A DNA stretch of 64,000 nucleotides from Candidatus Multivoraceae bacterium (GCA_965223385.1 CBDCWR010000006.1:137896-201895), one strand, 5' to 3'. Numbered from the stretch's first letter, positions 40,442 through 64,000 are shown. A program made the numbers and translations. Notes: a model not told the origin generated them from the letters alone.

Positions 40442-42307
40442 CTACTTCGCGCGGTAGACGATGAGCGCGTTGCCCGGCATCTGACCGAACAGGCTGTAGC
40501 CGGAGTTGACCAGCAGCAGGTCGTCCACCAGCTGGACGCCGGAGCTGTCGATCGACCCGCCGTGCGCGTCGATTCCGTTCACCGCCTCGAGCTCCCGCTT
40601 CGTCTGGTCCTGCCAGAGCACTTCACCCGTCGCCGCGTCGAAGGCGAACACGCGGCCGTCGAGCGCGCCCGCGAAGACCAGCTCCGAGTTGGACATCGGC
40701 GCCGCGGAGAACGCAAACTGGAAGGGGCACTCGGGCCAGGGGGTCTTGGACGCGCGGAGGGCCGCGACATCGAGCTCGCAGGCCCGCTCGGCCTTGTGCT
40801 CCCACAGCGTTTCGCCGCTCAGGAGATCGAGTGCGTAGAGCCCGGGCTTGGGGTCATAGCCCTGCCTCGGAAAGGCGGGGTCGTTGATCGGCACGAAGAC
40901 GCGGTCGCCCGCGACGGTCAGGCCCCAGTGCACTCCGCCGAGAGCGGAGCCGGCGCCGACCCGGTTCTGCCACAGCACCTCACCCGTGTCGGGATCGAGC
41001 GCGTGCACCTCGCCCGACTTCTGGCCGGCCACCACGATGTCCTTGCCGCTCGAGTGCGTGGCGAGGACCGCGGCTGCACCGAAGTCGAAGTCGGGGCCGT
41101 CTTCTTCCGGGCAGTTGGGGCCCTTGCGTCGGCCACAGGCCATGTTCCAGGCGTCCTCGCGTGTACCCTGGAACGACCAGCGGATCGCCCCGGTGGTCAT
41201 GTCGAGCGCCAGGATCGAGTCGCTGTGCTGCGTGGCGGGTGACGACGTGTTCTCGCCGGTGCCGATGTAGAGCTGGTTGCGTGCGGCGTCGATCGTGGGT
41301 GTGGTCCACACCGGCACCCCCGACGGCCCCCACTGCTGCACGCCCTCGCTCGAGACGTAGGTCGGCACCGCCTCTTTGGTCATGTGCGTGGTCCAGATCA
41401 CTTCGCCCGTGGCGGCGTCGAGCGCGAGCACCGCACCGCGGCTCTTGCAGCACTCGTACTTCGGGTTGGTCGCCAGCACCACGCCGAAGGCCGACACGGG
41501 GACGAAGAGGCGGTCGCCGCGGTCGTCCGAGAACGGGACGGGGGTGCCCGTGGTGGTGTTCGCCGGGTGCTGGGCAACGGACCGGCTCCACAGCGGTTCA
41601 CCGGTGTGCGCGTTGATGGCGTAGACGGTGGCGCCGTTGTCGCCCACGAACAGCGCGGTCTGGTCGCCCGCCTTGCCGAGCGCCATCGAGGTGCGGAGGG
41701 TCGCCTCCGTGTCGTGGTTCCACTTGATGCAGCCACTGTCCCGGTCGAGGGCGTACACCTGACCGGACACGCCGGCGACGAAGACCGTGTCTTCTGTGAC
41801 GACGGGCTGAGATCTCGCCTCCGCGACGTCCGGAATCGCGAAGACCCATGCCGGCTCCAGGCGCCCGGCGTTGGCCTTCGTGATGGTGGAGGTGGGCTGG
41901 TGGCGGGAGTTCGCGAGGTCGATGCCCCAACCGCCGACGCCGACGCCCCCGGTGCTCACTGTCTTGCCCTTGCAGAAGGCCGTCTCCGGCATGGCGTCGT
42001 GCTCCTTGGCGCCACCCGCGCTCAGGTACTCCGAGATCGTCATCATCTGGTCCGACGTGAGCATGGAGGCCTGCTCCTGCATCTTGCCGGACGTCATCGA
42101 GGTCAGGACCTGGTCCATGCTCATCTGCTGGAGCGCGCCGAGAAGGGGGCCCTCCGAGCGGCCCTGGCTGCGGTGGCAGGAGAGGCAGTGTCTGCGAAAG
42201 AGCTGCTCGCCGTCGTCGCCGGAGGCGCCTTCCTGGGCGGGGGCGGAAGCTGCGAACGGTGCTTGGAGGAGCAAGAGCGAGATGACGAGTGAACGGCGAA
42301 GAAGCAT
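40442..42307 (-). CDS. cytochrome c-PQQ dehydrogenase (polyvinyl-alcohol-dehydrogenase-like quinohaemoprotein)
   Basis: A signal peptide is present. N-terminal CLSCH haem c motif. PQQ propeller with vicinal YECCKS. Confidence 0.85.
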   Translation of the reverse strand: MLLRRSLVISLLLLQAPFAASAPAQEGASGDDGEQLFRRHCLSCHRSQGRSEGPLLGALQQMSMDQVLTSMTSGKMQEQASMLTSDQMMTISEYLSAGGAKEHDAMPETAFCKGKTVSTGGVGVGGWGIDLANSRHQPTSTITKANAGRLEPAWVFAIPDVAEARSQPVVTEDTVFVAGVSGQVYALDRDSGCIKWNHDTEATLRTSMALGKAGDQTALFVGDNGATVYAINAHTGEPLWSRSVAQHPANTTTGTPVPFSDDRGDRLFVPVSAFGVVLATNPKYECCKSRGAVLALDAATGEVIWTTHMTKEAVPTYVSSEGVQQWGPSGVPVWTTPTIDAARNQLYIGTGENTSSPATQHSDSILALDMTTGAIRWSFQGTREDAWNMACGRRKGPNCPEEDGPDFDFGAAAVLATHSSGKDIVVAGQKSGEVHALDPDTGEVLWQNRVGAGSALGGVHWGLTVAGDRVFVPINDPAFPRQGYDPKPGLYALDLLSGETLWEHKAERACELDVAALRASKTPWPECPFQFAFSAAPMSNSELVFAGALDGRVFAFDAATGEVLWQDQTKRELEAVNGIDAHGGSIDSSGVQLVDDLLLVNSGYSLFGQMPGNALIVYRAK

Positions 42308-42594
42308 GGCGGTTTCCTGTCTCGGAGAACGATTCCGCACGGGAGAGCTCCGTGCGGGGCGGAAGAGCGAACGTCGAGGCTATCCCGTTTGCGCGCCTGG
42401 ATGGATGGTGACAAGAGGCTGGGTCGTCGTGCGTCCGGTGCGTCGATGGGATCCCGCTGGAAGCGCGCTCGTCGCCAGAGACGCTCGTATACTGCCTGCG
42501 CTCACCCACCACGAGGACCGCGCCGACCAACCGTTGCCGACCCGGTAGCGGAGCGAAGCGGCGCCTTGCCGCCACCGCAGGACCGGAGACCCTC

Positions 42595-54727: not shown

Positions 54728-56029
54728 TCAGAGAGGTGGTGCGCCCACCTCGCCCCCGGCACGCCAGCGAATGAGCGGCAGGTGTGCTCTGCCGAGGAAG
54801 AACTCGCCGCCGAAGAGGTAGCCCGGAGTGCTCACGACACCCTCCTCGTCGTGCTTGCACAGGACCTCCTCGGCCGGTCGCCTCCAGGCCTCCGGGTCGA
54901 AAGCTCCCGCATCACATCCTGCAGCTTCCAGGAGAGCGCGGACGGCGTCGAGATCGAGGCCGGCTCCGACTGCTGCGACACGTTCCAGAGCGAGCTCGAG
55001 AAAGCTCTCGACCCGAGCGACGTCGTAGCCGATGACGAAGAGCCAAGTGCGGTGCAGAAGCTCCGTGTCGACCTGTTGGGGAGGCAACGGCACGCGCAAG
55101 GCCTCCGCTGCCAGCTCGAGCTGACGCGCCTCCTGCGCGCGGCGGAAGGCGAAGTGGCGCTGTGTCCGCTCTCCGCCCTCGGGAGCGAGCGCCGGACGCG
55201 CCACGTGCGGCCACCACGTGACGTCGAGGCCAGACCCGCGCAGGGCACGGCGGGTCGCATGGAAGGCGAGGTGCGACTCGGGCTGGCCGAGGTCGAGGAC
55301 AACGCGCAGAGCCGGGGCGTCGCGTACCTCGGCCGGTTTGTCCTCCGAGTGGAGCTGCCGGTACGCGATGGCGGGTGCGGAGCCTCTCCCTCCTTCGAGA
55401 TGCCAGAGCACCCGCGGCAGGTGCTCGCGTCCGAAGAAGATCTCCTCATCTACCACGAACGTGGGCACGCCGAAGATGCCGGCATCGAAGATCGCGCGCT
55501 GCATCTCGTCATGCTCGTGGCGCCCCTCTCCGTGCAGGAAGTCCGCGAAGCCCGCTGTTTCGGCTCCTGCTGCCGTGAGCACCGCCTCCACCACCTCTTG
55601 GCTCTCGGCGTCGAGCTCGCGCTTCCAGAAGGGCTCGTACGCGGCGCGGATGTAGCGCCGGAGCACGTCGTGGCCCTGTCTCTTGGCCCACATGAAGCCG
55701 ATGTGCACGAGGCTCGTGTCCCAGATCTTGACGGTGCCTCGCAGCGTGAGACCTCGGAGGGAGGCATAGCGACGACAGTCGAAGTAGGCGTACTTCACGG
55801 CGCGCCACTGCTCGGGGCTGCGGTTCTGTTCCGCGACCTTGCCGCCGGCATCGAGCTTCGCCGAGCCGAGATAGCTCGGAATGTCGAGCGTCAGCGGCCG
55901 CCAGTCGAACTGGGTGCCCAAGCGGTCCTCGAGGTCCATCGCCGGGAAGGTCGCAAGGTAGGCGTAGGGGCTCTTGATGTCGAGGTAGACGATGACCGGG
56001 GCGTCGCTGCGCAGCGGATCGAAGGTCAC
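54728..56029 (-). CDS. tandem DsbA-like / 2-hydroxychromene-2-carboxylate-isomerase-family protein
   Basis: Two thioredoxin-like HCCA-isomerase-type domains are present (VIVYLDIKSPYAYL...; LVHIGFMWAKRQGH). There is no CxxC. Confidence 0.7.
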   Translation of the reverse strand: MTFDPLRSDAPVIVYLDIKSPYAYLATFPAMDLEDRLGTQFDWRPLTLDIPSYLGSAKLDAGGKVAEQNRSPEQWRAVKYAYFDCRRYASLRGLTLRGTVKIWDTSLVHIGFMWAKRQGHDVLRRYIRAAYEPFWKRELDAESQEVVEAVLTAAGAETAGFADFLHGEGRHEHDEMQRAIFDAGIFGVPTFVVDEEIFFGREHLPRVLWHLEGGRGSAPAIAYRQLHSEDKPAEVRDAPALRVVLDLGQPESHLAFHATRRALRGSGLDVTWWPHVARPALAPEGGERTQRHFAFRRAQEARQLELAAEALRVPLPPQQVDTELLHRTWLFVIGYDVARVESFLELALERVAAVGAGLDLDAVRALLEAAGCDAGAFDPEAWRRPAEEVLCKHDEEGVVSTPGYLFGGEFFLGRAHLPLIRWRAGGEVGAPPL

Positions 56030-57624: not shown

Positions 57625-58461
57625 GTGTTTGCGTCGAAAGAGCTGGCGGAGCGTATCGAGCAGGCGGAGTGCCGCCTGCTCTCGAGCTCGCTGGCGGCGA
57701 TCTCACGGACGCGGCCCGAAGCCGACACGTTCGCGGAGGAGATCTCCGGTGGCCTCGCCACCTACTCCGGTCCCGGATCGCCGCTCAACAAGGTGGCCGG
57801 CCTGGGCTTCGGCCCCGCACTCGATCTCGACCGCCTGGAGCACATCGAGCAGCTGTTCGGCGCACGCGGCGGCGAGGTGCAGGTGGAGCTCGCGACGCTG
57901 GGTGATGCCTCGGTGGCGGAGGCGCTCACCGTGCGTGGCTACCGGCTCGTCGGCTTCGAGAACGTGCTGGGTCAGAGCCTCGCCTCACGAACCGCGCCAC
58001 CCGATCTTCCGGCTGGCGTCACCGTGGAAGCCGACGCGGAGCTCGAGCTTTGGCTCGACACGGTGGTATCGGGCTTCATGACCCCGGACGTCGACGGGAT
58101 TCCAGCACACGAGTCGTACCCCCGCGAGGTGATCGAAAGTGTGCTTCGTGACATGGCCGCAGCAGAGGGCGTGCAGCGCTACCTGGCGCGGTGGGGCGGC
58201 GAGCCCGCCGGAGCGGGGAGCCTCGGCCTGGACGGCTCCGTGGCGCAGCTGAACGGAGCGTCGACCTTGCCGGCGAAGCGGCGGCGCGGCGTGCAGGCCG
58301 CGCTGCTGGCTCGACGCCTCGAGGATGCGCGCGCGGCCGGCTGTGAGGTGGCGGTGGTCACCACCCAGCCCGGGTCCACGTCGCAACACAACGTCCAGCG
58401 CCGAGGCTTTCACCTGCTGTATGCCCGGGCCGTGCTCCAGCGGGCCGTCGAAGCGAGCTAG
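57625..58461 (+). CDS. GNAT-family acetyltransferase (two-domain)
   Basis: GTG start 6 nt after the aminotransferase stop. The C-terminal motif is LPAKRRRGVQAALLARRLEDARAAGCEVAVV. Confidence 0.6.
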   Translation: MFASKELAERIEQAECRLLSSSLAAISRTRPEADTFAEEISGGLATYSGPGSPLNKVAGLGFGPALDLDRLEHIEQLFGARGGEVQVELATLGDASVAEALTVRGYRLVGFENVLGQSLASRTAPPDLPAGVTVEADAELELWLDTVVSGFMTPDVDGIPAHESYPREVIESVLRDMAAAEGVQRYLARWGGEPAGAGSLGLDGSVAQLNGASTLPAKRRRGVQAALLARRLEDARAAGCEVAVVTTQPGSTSQHNVQRRGFHLLYARAVLQRAVEAS

Positions 58462-58510
58462 CCCAGCCGCTCCCAGCTCGATCGGCGCCGAAGAGAGCCT
58501 TTGCGGGGCA

Positions 58511-58774
58511 CTAGAGCATGGAGACCATGAGTGTGCGCCCGGCGGCCCAGGCGGCTCTGTAGAGCTGCTCGAGGCTGAGTGGCTCCTGGCCCTCGCCGAC
58601 CAGGGCCTCGATGTCCGTGGCGGCGAGGCCGGTCCTGGCCACCATGTCGTCGCGGGAGAGGTTCTGCTTCGACATCTCCGTGCGTAGCTCGGAACGGATC
58701 ACCCGCTCGGTCATGCGGGCCGCACGTGCGGCAACCTCGAGGGTCGGATAACTCTCGCGGCGCACGGGACTCAT
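58511..58774 (-). CDS. small HTH (XRE-like) protein
   Basis: MSPVRRESYPTLEVAARAARMTERVIRSELRTEMSKQNLSRDDMVARTGLAATDIEALVGE. Confidence 0.4.
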   Translation of the reverse strand: MSPVRRESYPTLEVAARAARMTERVIRSELRTEMSKQNLSRDDMVARTGLAATDIEALVGEGQEPLSLEQLYRAAWAAGRTLMVSML

Positions 58775-58967
58775 GGCCCGTCTCACGCCTCCACCTGCGT
58801 CTTGCTCTGCATCTCGTCGGTGGTGCTCCGTACCGCGCTCGCGGCAGGCCTCGTCACGCTCATCTCCGGTCCTCCTCGCCCTGTGCTGCATCGCGTTCGG
58901 GCGCGTTCTCCTGGAGAGATGCGTCGGTCGTCGGTTTCGTGACACGGAAGTGGTCCGGCGCCGGCAT

Positions 58968-60998
58968 TCAGTTCCGTGGCCGCGGCGTCGGCAGAGCCAG
59001 CGCGACCAGCTCGCCGGCATGCTCTCGATGGCTCGACGCGACCACCAGGATCTGTTGGCCAGCGACCTCGTAGGTCATGGGCGCTGCGGAGACCTGAGCG
59101 GGTAGCTCGACCGCGGCCAGCACCTCGCCGGTTGCCTTGTCGTAGGCCCGCAGGAAGTGTGGCTCCGGCTCCATGGCTCGGCCCACCAGTCCGCCCCCTT
59201 CGCCCACGAAGAGGAGGGTCTTCGTGACCAGGGCGCTGGCGGTGCCGACCTGACCCATGTGTGAGAAGTCCAGACCCAGGCCCTGCAGGTCCGGGTGCTC
59301 GCGCACCTGTTTGGGAGCGCGACCGTTGGGCACCTGCCAGAGGATGGTCCCTGTGCGGAGGTCGATCGCCGTGATCCGGCTCCAGGGAGGTTTCTCGAGG
59401 GGCAGACCGCGCGGGCCGCGAGGGCCGCCCCGGTCGACGCCGAGATAGCGGTAGTCGGAGCGTGACGGGTCGGGAGGTGGCTCGAGTGCACCGCCGCTCG
59501 ACTGCGAGAGCGAAGGGACGTACAACACTCCGGTCTCGGGGTCGAAGGCTGCGCCTCCCCAGTTGGCGCCACCGCCGAAGCCCGGCATGAGCACCGTTCC
59601 GAGGTTCGCCCTGCTGCCGGAGCCGCCTTCGATGCGCACCGAGGGAGGCGTGTAGAGAGGTCCGGTGCGCCACTGAGAGAGCGTCTTCAACGCCTCGGCC
59701 CGCAGCTCCGGCGTGAAGTCGATCACGTCGCTCTCGCCGAACCCCTGACGCTCGAACGGCGGCGGCTTCGTGGGGAACGGCTGCGTCCGCGACGTCTTCT
59801 CCCCCGGAACGTCGCTCTGCGGCACCACTCGCTCCTCGATGGGCCAGACGGGCTCGCCCGTGCGGCGATCGAACACGAAGGCGAATCCCTGCTTGGTCAC
59901 CTGGACCACCGCTTCGATGTCGCGGCCGTCGACGGCGACGTCGGCGAGCACGGGGGCTGCTGGAAGGTCGTAGTCCCAGATGCCGTGATGGACGATCTGG
60001 AAGTGCCAGCGTTTGCGACCGGTCGCCGCCTCGAGGGCCACGAGGCTCTCCGCGTAGAGGTTGTCGCCGGGGCGGTGCTCGCCGTAGAAGTCGTTGTTCG
60101 ATGTCTCCACCGGCAGGTAGACGAGGCCCAGCTCCTGGTCGGCGCTCATCATCGACCAGACGCCCGTGTTGCCGGCGATCCGCCAGGACTCGCCCTCCCA
60201 GGTCTCGCTGCCCGGCTCACCGGCGCGCGGCACCGTGTGGAAGGTCCAGCGCAGCGCACCGGTGCGCACGTCGAAGCCGCGCACGTGCCCGGGGGTGGCC
60301 TTCCGGCGAGGAGCCCGGATGGTCGTGGTCACCTGGACGACCACCGTGTCGCCCACCACCGCCGGAGGCGACGTGGAGCCCACGCTCACGCTTCGACCAC
60401 CTTCGAGGCCCGCGCCCAGATCGACGAAGCCCCCTTCCCCGAAGCTGGTGACGGGCCGGCCGCGGTCCGCGTGCAGAGCCACGAGTCGGCCGTCCCCGGT
60501 GACGAGGAGCAGACGCGTGCGACCGGTCTCCGGGTCACGCCAGAAGGCCACGGCGCGCCCGGCGACATGGCGCAGCCGCTGCGGGCTCGGTGGCTGCCAC
60601 GTCCAGAGCGGTGTTCCTTCGGCCGGGTCGAGCGCCGCCACGCCGTAGCTTCCGCTGGGCGCGTAGAGCCGACCGTTCACCAGGATGGGCGTGGCCTGGT
60701 AGTTGTCGTCGGGACGGTCGAAGAAGGGCAGGCTCTTCCAGCGCCACACGACCTCCAGATCGCCGACGTTGGTGCGGTCGATCTGCGTGAGCGGAGAGTA
60801 GCGAGTGAAGCCACTGTCGCCGCCCCAGGTGTGCCACGCACCGGGGGGCGCTCCGCGTTGAGCACCGGACGGCGCAACGAGGCCCAGGGTGAGCGCTACG
60901 AGCCCCGGGAACGCGCGCCTCCACGGGCCCGCCTTCGCCGGCAGCGGGCTCCGGCGAAGGCGGCTCCTCCCTGCCGCGCGGGCGAGCCCGGTGATCAA
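58968..60998 (-). CDS. PQQ-dependent dehydrogenase (glucose/quinate or ethanol family), secreted, with WDYD motif
   Basis: WHTWGGDSGFTRYSPLTQIDRTNVGDLEVVW; propeller motifs; HHGIWDYDLPAAP. The start is assigned to a TTG overlapping the upstream gene by 4 nt and is uncertain. Confidence 0.75.
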   Translation of the reverse strand: MITGLARAAGRSRLRRSPLPAKAGPWRRAFPGLVALTLGLVAPSGAQRGAPPGAWHTWGGDSGFTRYSPLTQIDRTNVGDLEVVWRWKSLPFFDRPDDNYQATPILVNGRLYAPSGSYGVAALDPAEGTPLWTWQPPSPQRLRHVAGRAVAFWRDPETGRTRLLLVTGDGRLVALHADRGRPVTSFGEGGFVDLGAGLEGGRSVSVGSTSPPAVVGDTVVVQVTTTIRAPRRKATPGHVRGFDVRTGALRWTFHTVPRAGEPGSETWEGESWRIAGNTGVWSMMSADQELGLVYLPVETSNNDFYGEHRPGDNLYAESLVALEAATGRKRWHFQIVHHGIWDYDLPAAPVLADVAVDGRDIEAVVQVTKQGFAFVFDRRTGEPVWPIEERVVPQSDVPGEKTSRTQPFPTKPPPFERQGFGESDVIDFTPELRAEALKTLSQWRTGPLYTPPSVRIEGGSGSRANLGTVLMPGFGGGANWGGAAFDPETGVLYVPSLSQSSGGALEPPPDPSRSDYRYLGVDRGGPRGPRGLPLEKPPWSRITAIDLRTGTILWQVPNGRAPKQVREHPDLQGLGLDFSHMGQVGTASALVTKTLLFVGEGGGLVGRAMEPEPHFLRAYDKATGEVLAAVELPAQVSAAPMTYEVAGQQILVVASSHREHAGELVALALPTPRPRN

Positions 60999-62281
60999 CG
61001 GCCCGCGCCCCAGCGCCTCGCCTCCTCTTCGCTGATGGCGGTCCACGTGATGAAGCCGTGCATCATCTCGTCGGTCGAAAGCAGCCCCCACTGCACCGGG
61101 CGCTCCGTGTCGATCTCCGGGAACTCGCGTCCGCGATCGGCCGAGTTGTCCATGTGGGCGTCCACCTCGATGCGCGTGCCGGGCGGAATGAGCTTGGGCT
61201 CCTCGAGGATGTACGCGATCTGCCATTCGAAGCTGTAGCGCGGAATGTCGATCAGCACCTCTTCGGTGCCGTCCGGGTAGATCGCGGTGTAGCGCTTGTC
61301 CTTGCCGCGGTAGTGCATGTGTGGGCTGAAGGAGGTCAGCAGCGCCCACTCCGGAATCTCCATCGCGGCGCCGATGCGCCAGTTGTCGTGCCCCGGCGGA
61401 ATCTCGAAATCGAAGAACCGGCCGATGCGCGTCTGCTGGAGGTCGTAGCGCACGTCCGCGTCGTCGTCGTAGAAGACCATTCCCACGGAGACCTGGTTCT
61501 CGATGCCGGTTCCTGGCCCAGGCTCTTTGTTGTAGTGCAGCGACAGGACGATCTTCGACCCGGGGTGGAGGCGCCTGGCGAAGCCGGGCGGGTATTCGCG
61601 GGGCTCACTTCCCGTCGCGATGCCGCCGAGGAAGAATGGCTCGCGCTCGTTGCCGTTCTCGTCGGGGGGCGGCACGATGGTGGCCGTCAGATGATGGATG
61701 ATGTTGCAGTTGGGTTTGAACTCGGCGACCTTGATCCAGCGCGGCTCGGGCAGCTGCTCCGGAGTGAGCTCGAACGTGACATAAGGCTGCCAGTCTTCGA
61801 CGTCGTCGCCGACCGTGATCGGCTCCGGCATCGTGAGCACGAGATCGGGCTCGCCGATGAGCCAGCCCGTGTCCTGGAAGACGCGCGGCTGCGGCGCGTC
61901 GTCGGCGTCGCCTGCGGGCGCACCCTGGTCGACCCAGCGGACGATGAGGTCGATCTCCTCGGGTGCCAGGCTGCGGCTGTTGGCGATCTGTGCCGACGTC
62001 TCGTGGGAGGCGCCCCAGGGTGGCATGGCGCGGCTGGCGACGGCCTTGCGGATGGACTTGGCCCACGGCCGCGCGTCCTCGTAGGAGACGAGGCTCATGG
62101 GCGCGATCATGCCGGAGATCTCGGGACCGCCCGGGCGGTGACACTCCTGACAGTTCTTCTGGAAGATGGGCACGATGTCGCGGTGGAACGTCACGTCCGC
62201 GCCCGACTCGCTGCCGAATGTCAGCGTGGCGCTGAGGAGCGAGACGGCGACTGCCAGGACTGCCGTGCGTGGGAAGTTCAT
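60995..62281 (-). CDS. secreted cytochrome c domain fused to a copper type-II monooxygenase-like (PHM/DBH-like) domain
   Basis: Signal peptide. CQECH haem motif. His clusters are arranged like CuH and CuM sites (NIIHHLTA; SLHYN; SPHMHYRG; DEMMHGF). Confidence 0.65.
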   Translation of the reverse strand: MNFPRTAVLAVAVSLLSATLTFGSESGADVTFHRDIVPIFQKNCQECHRPGGPEISGMIAPMSLVSYEDARPWAKSIRKAVASRAMPPWGASHETSAQIANSRSLAPEEIDLIVRWVDQGAPAGDADDAPQPRVFQDTGWLIGEPDLVLTMPEPITVGDDVEDWQPYVTFELTPEQLPEPRWIKVAEFKPNCNIIHHLTATIVPPPDENGNEREPFFLGGIATGSEPREYPPGFARRLHPGSKIVLSLHYNKEPGPGTGIENQVSVGMVFYDDDADVRYDLQQTRIGRFFDFEIPPGHDNWRIGAAMEIPEWALLTSFSPHMHYRGKDKRYTAIYPDGTEEVLIDIPRYSFEWQIAYILEEPKLIPPGTRIEVDAHMDNSADRGREFPEIDTERPVQWGLLSTDEMMHGFITWTAISEEEARRWGAGR

Positions 62282-62362
62282 GTGATGGCTCCATTGGAAT
62301 GTCGTTGAATGGCGACTCGTGGCGATCCTGTGTCGAGCCCTCTCGGGCGTTGACCCTGAGCG

Positions 62363-63058
62363 CTACCGCGGACGCGCTCCCTCGGCTCCGGCAACGTGAA
62401 ATGCCGCGGTCCACTGGTGCTCGCCCCACTCGATGCGCAAGAGCGCTTCGTCGGTGCCTCCTTCGAGGCTGCCCTTCAAGGCACTCGTGCCGCCGGGGTG
62501 GCGGGTGTACGACGCGGGGACCACGCTGCGAACGGTGTCGGGGTCGTACTGAGAGCCCCAGGCGTCCGCCTGGTCGTTGAACACCAGCTCCCAGCCCGAA
62601 TCGTTGCGGCGCAGCCACACGCCGTACGCGCCGAGGTAGTTCGCGGCGACGTTGCCGACGGGCAGCGTCACAGGCTCGTGCGCGTGCCCGGGAAAGACGA
62701 GCGCCGTCGTCGTCGTGAGCTTGATGACGGGGGAACGGAGCAGCCGAAGCGGCGCGCCGGGCACGAGAGTGGTCACGGCGCGATACTCGCCGTCGTCCGC
62801 CGGCAGGGCGCGCGTGAACAACCGGACCTGGTCCTCGCCGTCCTCCAGGGTCGCCTCCACGCGGCGAAAGCGGTACGCGAAGGTGGTGTTGGAGCGCACG
62901 GGGGAGCGCTCGGTGACCACCTGCCGCGGCCGGTCGTCCTCGGTCTGCTCGGGAGTCTCCGCATGCGATGTCGTGTCGACGGCCGCCAGGCCCGCAAAGG
63001 CGACCGCCACCAGAGTCCAGGTGCCGAAGCACGAGGTCTTTCCACCCGCGGAGCTCAC
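62363..63058 (-). CDS. secreted hypothetical protein
   Basis: GTG start with a ggagga RBS. The signal peptide overlaps the CMD gene stop by 4 nt. Confidence 0.5.
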   Translation of the reverse strand: MSSAGGKTSCFGTWTLVAVAFAGLAAVDTTSHAETPEQTEDDRPRQVVTERSPVRSNTTFAYRFRRVEATLEDGEDQVRLFTRALPADDGEYRAVTTLVPGAPLRLLRSPVIKLTTTTALVFPGHAHEPVTLPVGNVAANYLGAYGVWLRRNDSGWELVFNDQADAWGSQYDPDTVRSVVPASYTRHPGGTSALKGSLEGGTDEALLRIEWGEHQWTAAFHVAGAEGARPR

Positions 63059-63696
63059 TCGGGGAATCCTCCGAGGCCCTCCTCCGGCTGTACACCGAAC
63101 GTGCGCAGCGCCATCGAGACGAGGTTGTACTCGCCCACGGTGAACACGACGTCCATCAGCTGCTTCTTGGAGTACGTCTTGGCGAGCTCGGCCCAGGTGG
63201 CGTCCGAGACGAAGGCGCTCTCTCGCAGCTCGTCGGTGGCGCGGAGCAGGGCGCGCTCGTGCGCCGTCCAGCCGGCTGCGTCCGGGCCTTTCGTGATGCG
63301 CTCGATCTCCGTGTCGGTCATGCCGACCTGGCGGGCGATGCGGGCGTGCTGGCCCCACTCGTACTCCGACTGGCAGAGCCAGCCGATGCGGAGGATGAGG
63401 ATCTCGCGGTCTCTTGCTGGGAGAGAGTTTTCCGCCAGCACGTAGCGCGCGAAGGTGAGCCACGCCTCGGCCAGGTCCTCGTGCTGCACGATCGTCTTGG
63501 TGACGTTGATGTTGGTGTCCCCGACGAGCCGTTTCTGACGCTCCGTCGCCTTCTCGAGCTCGATCGGCTCGATGCGCGGGGCGTCGAGGGGGCGGCGTAC
63601 GGGAAGATCTTCCGAGGGCGCAGAGTGGATTGCTCCGCCGGCGAAGAGCCAGGCGAGTCCCCAGGCGATTCGAGGCAACCACGTTCTCTCGTACAT
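63055..63696 (-). CDS. carboxymuconolactone decarboxylase (AhpD-like) family protein
   Basis: PARDREILILRIGWLCQSEYEWGQHARIARQVGMTDTEIERI is the CMD motif. Confidence 0.75.
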   Translation of the reverse strand: MYERTWLPRIAWGLAWLFAGGAIHSAPSEDLPVRRPLDAPRIEPIELEKATERQKRLVGDTNINVTKTIVQHEDLAEAWLTFARYVLAENSLPARDREILILRIGWLCQSEYEWGQHARIARQVGMTDTEIERITKGPDAAGWTAHERALLRATDELRESAFVSDATWAELAKTYSKKQLMDVVFTVGEYNLVSMALRTFGVQPEEGLGGFPE

Positions 63697-63910
63697 CACG
63701 GCCGCTCCTTTTCGTGTGGGCGTTCGAGAAGCATACACACCCGGCGACGCGCGCATGACAACGCGTCGGAAAGAGCCGCCCGGCGCGGCGCCGAAACACC
63801 CGCGCCGTGCGGGCGATTCGTGCGGACTGCTCGGGCGGTCGGCTCCCGTATCATGGGGAGCCTTGAATGCGCTGAGGCGGCGATTCTGAAGAGGGAGCGT
63901 TGCGGGAGAC

Positions 63911-64000
63911 GTGGTCGACGAACGCCGAGAGTTCGAGAGGCTGGACCGGCTGCTCGAAGAAGCGCTGCGCCGGCCGGTCGGAGAACGGTCTGGGTTCCTG
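63911..64000 (+). CDS. partial CDS, N-terminus resembling bacterial Ser/Thr protein kinases (runs off the window end)
   Basis: (V)VDERREFERLDRLLEEALRRPVGERSGFL resembles the common ...ERWQRIEELFHAALELPPEERAAFL kinase N-terminus. GAGGGAG sits upstream. Confidence 0.25.
   Translation, partial: MVDERREFERLDRLLEEALRRPVGERSGFL

Follow-up and report, generated by a model that had tools for sequence, protein, structure and literature searches.

A bacterial haem c-copper monooxygenase-like fusion protein and a PQQ dehydrogenase as its candidate electron source

Introduction

The question raised by the locus described here is whether bacteria possess relatives of the two-copper monooxygenases of animals and, if so, what supplies them with electrons. 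The locus lies in a 64,000-nucleotide stretch of DNA from a Candidatus Multivoraceae bacterium (GCA_965223385.1, CBDCWR010000006.1:137896-201895), which is referred to as the window and in which positions are counted from the first letter. One gene of the window encodes a protein, designated cyt-Cu2, in which a cytochrome c is joined to a pair of domains resembling those of peptidylglycine alpha-hydroxylating monooxygenase (PHM) and dopamine beta-hydroxylase (DBH), and a neighbouring gene encodes a secreted pyrroloquinoline quinone (PQQ) dehydrogenase, designated PQQ-DH. The animal two-copper enzymes of this kind make noradrenaline and amidated peptide hormones. In PHM and DBH the two electrons needed per turnover enter from ascorbate at one copper site (CuH), while O2 activation and hydrogen abstraction take place at the other (CuM), ~11 Å away. 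To our knowledge, all non-coupled binuclear copper monooxygenases that have been characterised (PHM, DBH and tyramine beta-monooxygenase) are eukaryotic and driven by ascorbate.

The explanation favoured here is that cyt-Cu2 is a fused haem c-Cu2 monooxygenase-like enzyme whose electrons most likely come from the PQQ-DH of its operon. Taken as a whole, this explanation is evenly poised between being right and being wrong, and its parts are weighed separately below.

Cytochrome c domain of cyt-Cu2

The N-terminal part of cyt-Cu2 is a class I-type cytochrome c with haem attached to C44 and C47 and with H48 as an axial ligand; the second axial ligand is probably M86. The features of this type of cytochrome are all present, namely the CxxCH motif, the distal methionine and an export signal, the last being a hydrophobic Sec-type signal sequence (MNFPRTAVLAVAVSLLSATLTFG). 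Conservation was followed in a close set of 41 homologues, which are 40-77% identical to cyt-Cu2, and in a wider set of 181 locus-encoded relatives with identities down to ~32%. C44, C47, H48 and M86 are invariant in all 41 homologues, and the CxxCH motif and M86 are kept in 181 of the 181 relatives. Pfam assigns Cytochrome_CBB3 (27.2 bits; cut-off 27) and Cytochrom_C (23.5 bits; cut-off 21.3) to the protein, and such cytochrome matches are the only ones that Pfam and NCBIfam give for it. The start codon, an ATG, is preceded at a distance of 7 nucleotides by GGAG. A context look-up with the exact sequence of the window protein returned no record.

A predicted PHM/DBH-like fold with a complete set of putative copper ligands

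An AlphaFold2 model of cyt-Cu2 built on the 41 homologues (pLDDT 88.5, pTM 0.84) was compared with the PDB by Foldseek. The first 31 matches are all PHM or DBH, including human DBH, with E-values from 3.1e-13 to 9e-10, a probability of 1.0 and target-normalised TM-scores of 0.36-0.63. These alignments extend over ~300 columns and span both domains, and the next match is at 8e-06. Profile-profile comparison leads to the same sites. When the family profile is aligned by hhalign with the rat PHM sequence (220 columns, E 1.4e-4), all six copper ligands fall in register; the sequence of the rat catalytic core was checked against PDB chain 5wm0_A, which fixes the numbering of H107, H108, H172, H242, H244 and M314. 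Local motifs agree as well, as in LHY versus VHY, HMHYRGK versus HTHHLGK and STDEMM versus SSDEMC (cyt-Cu2 versus PHM in each case), and the spacing of the ligands is 52/72/83 residues in cyt-Cu2 versus 64/70/70 in PHM.

The putative ligands are strongly conserved. H196, H197, H249, H321, H323 and M406 are invariant in 41/41 homologues, and each is kept in 96-99% of the wider set: H196 and H249 each in 180 of the 181 relatives, H323 in 177, H197 and H321 each in 176, and M406 in 173, with 7 gaps at that position. The His/Met pattern of cyt-Cu2 is not a chance arrangement. Judging from the predicted fold and the aligned metal sites, the C-terminal ~290 residues constitute a complete, two-domain catalytic core that belongs to the superfamily of non-coupled binuclear copper monooxygenases, and the protein would accordingly be expected, by resemblance, to hold copper and to carry out oxygenase chemistry. 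A preliminary description of this DNA, made from the sequence, had proposed just such a fusion of a cytochrome c to a PHM/DBH-fold domain on the strength of five motifs (CQECH, IIHHL, SLHYN, HMHYRG and EMMHGF). All five are present where it placed them in the gene product, the structural comparison bears out the fusion, and the residues that it assigned to CuH and CuM correspond one-to-one to those of rat PHM.

Several observations weigh against the assignment. The TM-scores are moderate (0.51-0.63 when normalised to PHM length) and the root-mean-square deviations are 6-8 Å, which is attributed to a different interdomain angle. The probability given by hhalign for the family profile against rat PHM is just 52%. 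The window protein matches neither of the Pfam models of the family, Cu2_monooxygen (PF01082) and Cu2_monoox_C (PF03712), even at E<=10. A search of PDB sequences with the family profile finds no PHM and reaches nothing beyond the haem domain of hydrazine synthase alpha (E 0.003). Since the window protein lacks a Pfam match to the copper domains and the PDB sequence search yields no PHM, the assignment rests on structure prediction and profile-profile alignment. On the supporting side, PF03712 gives weak matches in 30 of the 41 relatives (best E 1.7e-6; relative P0262 reaches 19.6 bits with a cut-off of 23), and PF01082, the N-terminal model, matches in one.

Membership in PHM proper (EC 1.14.17.3) was considered and rejected. 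In PHM the C-terminal carboxylate of a glycine-extended peptide is bound by residues that, from the PHM-substrate structure, we take to be R240, N316 and Y318. They are not kept in cyt-Cu2, where S319, H408 and F410 align with them. Within the family the three positions are variable (M/H/L/F, I/A/L/F and F/W/Y, respectively). Because the peptide-binding positions are both replaced and variable, the substrate of cyt-Cu2 differs from that of PHM, and it is predicted not to be a glycine-extended peptide.

A haem-less PQQ dehydrogenase encoded next to cyt-Cu2

PQQ-DH matches Pfam PF01011 over nearly its whole length (E 2.4e-188, profile positions 1-593 of 595), and a WDYD sequence at residue 341, in the region of the active-site Asp, lines up with WDYT in 1yiq; the propeller is predicted from these features to bind PQQ. 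The best-scoring NCBIfam-type family is TIGR03074, the membrane-bound glucose/quinate/shikimate dehydrogenases, and PQQ-DH is glucose/quinate dehydrogenase-like. The score is 386.6 bits against a cut-off of 832.65, and the match is limited to profile positions 151-768, as the membrane part is absent from PQQ-DH. The best match in the PDB, 1yiq (2.7e-39), covers the propeller alone and represents a distant relationship. No cytochrome match to Pfam is found in the 676 residues of PQQ-DH, nor is there a membrane anchor. An enzyme with neither a haem domain nor an anchor requires an external electron acceptor.

The stop codon of cyt-Cu2 and the start codon of PQQ-DH overlap in the sequence TTGA, which suggests translational coupling. 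The preliminary description had postulated both this 4-nucleotide overlap with a TTG start and the secretion of a PQQ dehydrogenase containing WDYD, and each of these points has held up: the 676-residue protein with a TTG start is exactly the one called on the 2.04-Mb source contig in NCBI/ENA, and no other in-frame ATG, GTG or TTG lies ahead of the hydrophobic stretch of the signal peptide. An alternative start at an upstream GTG (61349, giving an open reading frame of 793 residues) was rejected, as it would overlap the cytochrome gene by 354 nucleotides and the called protein is the 676-residue TTG form. The signal region (window 60850-60998) reads ...GPWRRAFPGLVALTLGLVAPSGAQ and contains a twin-arginine-like RRxF motif (RRAF) after a long Arg-rich leader.

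Proposed route of electrons

By comparison with PHM and DBH, the fused haem would take up single electrons and hand them to CuH (H196, H197 and H249), thereby filling the role of ascorbate in the animal enzymes. Where the periplasm contains no ascorbate, the obvious donor of single electrons to this site would be the fused haem c with its His/Met ligation. The electron would then cross the interdomain cleft to CuM (H321, H323 and M406), where O2 would be activated and a C-H bond of the substrate hydroxylated. The two electrons needed in each turnover would most likely be supplied by the soluble, haem-less PQQ-DH (PQQH2 -> haem c -> CuH -> CuM), possibly with the DUF2911 protein encoded in the same operon as an accessory module of the dehydrogenase. 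PQQH2 on a soluble propeller that lacks haem should be a thermodynamically suitable two-electron source, by analogy with the reduction of cytochrome cL by methanol dehydrogenase. Both the direction of flow from PQQH2 through haem to copper and the identity of the partners are inferred from gene order.

An extension of this scheme, considered improbable at present, is a closed oxygenase loop in the periplasm that would draw on no reductant of the cell. In such a loop cyt-Cu2 would hydroxylate a C-H bond, PQQ-DH together with the DUF2911 protein would oxidise the resulting alcohol to a carbonyl, and both electrons would return through the fused haem to copper, for a net reaction of RH2 + O2 -> R=O + H2O.

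Conservation of the gene neighbourhood

Gene neighbourhoods were compared in 163 loci, comprising 80 genome loci, 80 metagenome loci whose cyt-Cu2 members are 32-45% identical to that of the window, and 3 contigs of close orthologues; DUF2911 and PQQ-DH neighbours were counted by tblastn. Close orthologues were defined by an identity of >=65%, and there are six (the window, L001, L002, L081, L082 and L083). All six have a PQQ-DH gene on the same strand, which is adjacent in five. Its position changes from locus to locus: downstream and overlapping in the window, on both sides of cyt-Cu2 in L001, upstream in L002, L081 and L083, and 5 kb upstream in L082. The DUF2911 gene is present in the window, L002, L081 and L082. 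Outside this group, the order cyt-Cu2 (two copies), DUF2911, PQQ-DH recurs in the Hydrogenedentota loci L044, L059 and L069, the PQQ-DHs of which are 40-46% identical to that of the window (full length in L044 and L059; L069 stops at the contig end).

DUF2911 lies beside cyt-Cu2 in 13 loci other than the window, and it tracks the cyt-Cu2 clade at least as well as PQQ-DH does. It follows cyt-Cu2 without a PQQ-DH in L045, L051, L054, L072, L091, L094 and L097, loci of this kind being found in Nitrospirales and Sumerlaeota. DUF2911 and PQQ-DH form a single open reading frame of 854 residues in L002 (2395-4959), and this fusion ties DUF2911 to the dehydrogenase. In L081 (5244-6434) the two are in frame across their junction, after which there is a frameshift in a contig with 2x coverage. 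Clustering by identity places the flagged loci mainly in three sub-clades, the window's own and two from Hydrogenedentota and Nitrospirales, with scattered single loci elsewhere. We read the coupling to PQQ-DH as a real feature of particular clades and not of the cyt-Cu2 family as a whole. The preliminary description had looked to synteny for a decision, and the answer is divided in the same way, as the pairing is kept throughout the close orthologues and is rare beyond them.

A number of these findings speak against PQQ-DH as the donor. A PQQ-DH is nearby in just 10 of the 163 sampled loci, and in 1 of the 80 metagenome loci; its position varies among upstream, downstream and 5 kb away; and the nearby PQQ enzyme of L082 is a quinohaemoprotein with a cytochrome domain of its own. 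PQQ-like propellers are frequent in this genome, with two such genes in the 64-kb window. The second encodes a PQQ-like beta-propeller of 632 residues (PQQ_2/PQQ; window 40442..42340, minus strand) 18 kb from the operon, so that adjacency by chance has to be reckoned with. A scan of part of the window showed no pqq biosynthesis gene.

It is conceivable, then, that the adjacency of PQQ-DH is incidental, that secreted redox genes simply cluster in propeller-rich genomes and that the overlap of the two genes reflects a compact operon. The two PQQ-like genes of the window fit this explanation, as does the frequency of PQQ-DH neighbours in the family at large (~6%), which is near the chance expectation at such a gene density. 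It is nevertheless considered very improbable, since the close orthologues retain PQQ-DH in every case despite rearrangement, the same set of three genes is met again in a second phylum (Hydrogenedentota), where the PQQ-DHs are of one subfamily at 40-50% identity, DUF2911 and PQQ-DH can be fused, and the start/stop overlap suggests that translation of the two genes is coupled.

A somewhat unlikely alternative, though one with more in its favour, accepts cyt-Cu2 as a copper monooxygenase and has its haem reduced by the general periplasmic cytochrome pool. PQQ-DH would then belong to the same pathway, as the enzyme that oxidises the product of hydroxylation or one that prepares the substrate, and would not be a dedicated reductase. 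Most members of the family have no PQQ-DH nearby, and the family must therefore be able to obtain electrons elsewhere; some module loci (L039, L069) have a separate dihaem cytochrome c gene upstream; and the position of PQQ-DH relative to cyt-Cu2 is not fixed. On the other hand, a PQQ-DH that lacks both haem and anchor still needs an acceptor, and the fused cytochrome is the sole one in the operon. Supply from the pool and supply from PQQ-DH are not mutually exclusive, and if PQQ-DH recycles the product, the alternative becomes the closed loop described above.

Distribution and domain fusions of the cyt-Cu2 family

The family is large, with at least 2,709 homologue matches to the cyt-Cu2 protein and at least 4,236 representatives of 50%-identity clusters at E<=1e-30. 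Members occur in Thermoanaerobaculia and other Acidobacteriota, Hydrogenedentota, Sumerlaeota, Nitrospirales and Rhodothermaeota. In the source records they are called 'c-type cytochrome', 'mono/diheme cytochrome c family protein', 'hypothetical protein' or 'alkyl hydroperoxide reductase', and with names this generic the copper domain goes unnoticed.

Ten long members were scanned for further domains. In nine of them an N-terminal AhpC/TSA (peroxiredoxin/redoxin) domain precedes the cytochrome c and the PHM-like core (P0225, P0308, P0332, P0333, P0262, P0286, P0349, P0365 and P0283), an arrangement that may explain the name 'alkyl hydroperoxide reductase' on a related fusion, P0103. Seven of the ten carry an extra recognisable domain, usually at the C terminus (GDSL lipase, alpha/beta hydrolase/PETase-like, CBM48, ankyrin or EF-hand), and in one long member the N terminus also bears a BlaR1-type M56 peptidase domain. 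The presence of AhpC/TSA in many members points to a thiol or peroxide link that electron supply by PQQ-DH leaves unexplained and that counts against that explanation. Together with a neighbouring gene for a secreted CMD/AhpD-like protein, which heads the operon in the window, L002 and L082 and adjoins cyt-Cu2 in the more distant L096, these fusions suggest an additional peroxide or thiol-redox aspect, for which H2O2 control and a TlpA-like maturation of the copper or haem site are possibilities.

These two observations would also fit a fusion that is an electron sink for PQQ-DH and not a hydroxylase. Haem c would in that case accept electrons from PQQH2, and the copper sites would reduce O2 or H2O2, so that the protein would serve in the periplasm as a small oxidase or peroxidase linked to the redox control of peroxide or thiols. 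Such a function is judged unlikely. The ligand set of CuH and CuM is complete, down to the Met of the O2-activating site, which is what substrate-hydroxylating enzymes keep, and in the known enzymes of the PHM/DBH fold O2 reduction is tightly coupled to hydroxylation of the substrate (PMC9064607). Tandem arrays of 2-6 diverged cyt-Cu2 paralogues, moreover, fit diversification of substrates better than a single oxidase role. Arrays of this type are common (L159, 1193-7149; also L085, L103, L109, L115, L123, L139 and L147), and some end in a truncated member of ~230 residues.

In loci of Nitrospirales and Hydrogenedentota (L039, 7427-10823; also L069, L072 and L044), three genes lie upstream of paired cyt-Cu2 paralogues. 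They encode a dihaem cytochrome c, a thiamine-diphosphate enzyme with a twin-arginine signal, and a conserved protein of 168 residues without a Pfam match. A periplasmic enzyme dependent on thiamine diphosphate would be unusual.

Organization of the operon and its surroundings

The genes for the CMD/AhpD-like protein, the DUF2911 protein, cyt-Cu2 and PQQ-DH form, in that order, a four-gene operon on the minus strand (Table 1) and are predicted from this arrangement to be co-transcribed in this clade. The first two were not part of the preliminary description. A gap of 81 nucleotides separates the DUF2911 and cyt-Cu2 genes, and a scan of positions 58000-64000 for promoter and terminator consensus sequences found none. 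Gene starts were fixed by homology and by the proteins called in NCBI/ENA, with which the starts in the operon agree. The DNA here is 68-70% GC, and a mechanical list of open reading frames contains long spurious or over-extended frames that overlap the real genes (58968-61349, 61605-63095 and 62363-63799, all on the minus strand), with over-extended forms of 793 residues for PQQ-DH and 478 residues for DUF2911.

Table 1. Features of the cyt-Cu2 operon, listed in the direction of transcription (residues are those of cyt-Cu2; ligand correspondences to rat PHM are from hhalign)
Feature	Position in window	Strand	Remarks
CMD/AhpD-like gene	63055..63696	-	213 aa (amino acids), secreted; Pfam CMD 2e-14; exact 213-aa protein called in NCBI/ENA
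GTGA overlap	63055-63058	-	TGA stop of CMD/AhpD-like gene and GTG start of DUF2911 gene
DUF2911 gene	62363..63058	-	231 aa, secreted, GTG start; identical to called protein P0121
cyt-Cu2 gene	60995..62281	-	428-aa open reading frame; periplasmic haem c-Cu2 monooxygenase-like protein
cyt-Cu2 domains			Signal peptide ~1-24; cytochrome c ~30-125; CuH domain ~146-285; CuM domain ~290-416
CQECH	62138..62152	-	Residues 44-48; haem c attachment motif, C44/C47/H48
MPPW	62015-62026	-	Contains M86, likely distal haem ligand
IIHHL	61688..61702	-	Residues 194-198; H196/H197 correspond to CuH ligands H107/H108
SLHYN	61529..61543	-	Residues 247-251; H249 corresponds to CuH ligand H172
HMHYRG	61304..61321	-	Residues 321-326; H321/H323 correspond to CuM ligands H242/H244
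EMMHGF	61052..61069	-	Residues 405-410; M406 corresponds to CuM ligand M314
TTGA overlap	60995..60998	-	TGA stop of cyt-Cu2 (60997-60995) and TTG start of PQQ-DH (60998-60996)
PQQ-DH gene	58968..60998	-	676 aa, TTG start; secreted eight-bladed PQQ-type propeller

The assignment of the second gene to DUF2911 comes from PF11138, which is precomputed for the called protein of 231 residues and for 101 of 104 DUF2911 relatives; the longer open reading frame scores 25.4 bits with a cut-off of 27. A homologue search with the single DUF2911 sequence returned itself alone, and the relatives came from a profile search. The predicted structure (pLDDT 78.8) has an all-beta core, and a Foldseek comparison of the model with the PDB gave no significant match, the best being fatty-acid-binding proteins at E 0.07 with a probability below 0.2. 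The invariant residues are the aromatics Y141, Y145, W148 and W156 together with N136, N161 and D165. A role as a copper chaperone was considered for this protein and dropped because no His, Cys or Met is invariant in it. Some relatives (L091, L094 and L097) have two tandem copies of DUF2911.

The window ends upstream of the operon. On its 3' side are convergent, unrelated genes for a GNAT acetyltransferase, a class-V aminotransferase and a double DSBA-like protein. Beyond the convergent genes, positions 54728-56029 of the minus strand encode a protein of 433 residues, the N-terminal part of which is a DSBA-like thioredoxin domain (residues 12-207); the C-terminal half is about equally large and has no separate Pfam match. 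The protein has no obvious link to the operon.

Relation to known systems

The resemblance of cyt-Cu2 to PHM (PDB 1PHM, 5WM0) and DBH (PDB 4ZEL) lies in the two-domain beta-sandwich fold, in the HH...H (CuH) and HxH...M (CuM) ligands in register, and in the local motifs HH, HY, HxHxxG and DEM that are common to both. Unlike the animal enzymes, cyt-Cu2 is bacterial and periplasmic, has an N-terminal cytochrome c where they use ascorbate, and is ~16% identical to them, below Pfam thresholds.

A copper monooxygenase driven by PQQ is not new as a concept. A fungal PQQ-dependent pyranose dehydrogenase, in which an AA12 domain is combined with an AA8 cytochrome b, drives lytic polysaccharide monooxygenases (LPMOs; PMC5960967), and c-type cytochrome domains reduce bacterial LPMOs (PMC8981238). 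The logic of the fungal system is the same as that inferred here, in that electrons pass outside the cytoplasm from a PQQ dehydrogenase through a haem domain to a copper monooxygenase. The components differ: in the window the haem is carried by the monooxygenase and not by the dehydrogenase, it is haem c and not haem b, the copper protein has the two-copper PHM fold and not the mononuclear histidine brace of an LPMO, and the dehydrogenase is an eight-bladed PF01011 propeller and not AA12. The couple of PQQ dehydrogenase and copper monooxygenase, for which the preliminary description knew of no account, thus has a precedent in fungi as far as its principle is concerned. Full-text searches of the literature turned up no account of a PHM-type binuclear copper core that carries a fused haem c, of haem-fused PHM/DBH-like proteins in bacteria on this scale, or of a recurrent module of cyt-Cu2, DUF2911 and PQQ-DH; literature matches for the Pfam and InterPro names of the copper monooxygenase family were all eukaryotic.

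A second parallel is offered by the 'direct coupling' model for particulate methane monooxygenase (pMMO) and methanol dehydrogenase in methanotrophs, in which a PQQ dehydrogenase oxidises the product of the monooxygenase and electrons are proposed to return through a c-type cytochrome (PMC4658805). pMMO differs from cyt-Cu2 in being a membrane enzyme (CuMMO) of unrelated fold, and the coupling, which is debated, proceeds through free cytochrome cL. We know of no gene fusion or shared operon of the cyt-Cu2/PQQ-DH kind for that pair. The best solved relatives of PQQ-DH, the type II quinohaemoprotein alcohol dehydrogenases (PDB 1YIQ, 1KV9), likewise have PQQ propellers that pass electrons to an adjacent c-type haem. 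PQQ-DH of the window departs from them in lacking a C-terminal cytochrome c domain, and from the alcohol and methanol dehydrogenase type in lacking the vicinal Cys-Cys in the aligned region.

Significance

The cyt-Cu2 family is a very large and effectively unannotated bacterial branch of an enzyme class that is mechanistically well studied but for which we found no member from prokaryotes, or with a linked haem, that has been characterised. The entry of electrons at CuH and their passage to CuM are still under debate in this class, and a haem donor that is covalently attached and spectroscopically visible provides a natural system in which to trigger and follow electron transfer between the sites. 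The trio formed with DUF2911 and a haem-less PQQ-DH supplies a concrete and testable candidate for the electron source, as well as a first functional context for DUF2911. Should the closed loop prove to be true, it would be a soluble and genetically compact counterpart of the long-debated direct coupling of pMMO and methanol dehydrogenase, and would give the PHM/DBH enzymes their first branch that is prokaryotic, independent of ascorbate and equipped with a defined physiological donor of electrons. More broadly, the family points to undescribed chemistry of C-H hydroxylation in the periplasm of Acidobacteriota, Hydrogenedentota, Sumerlaeota and Nitrospirota, sponge symbionts among them.

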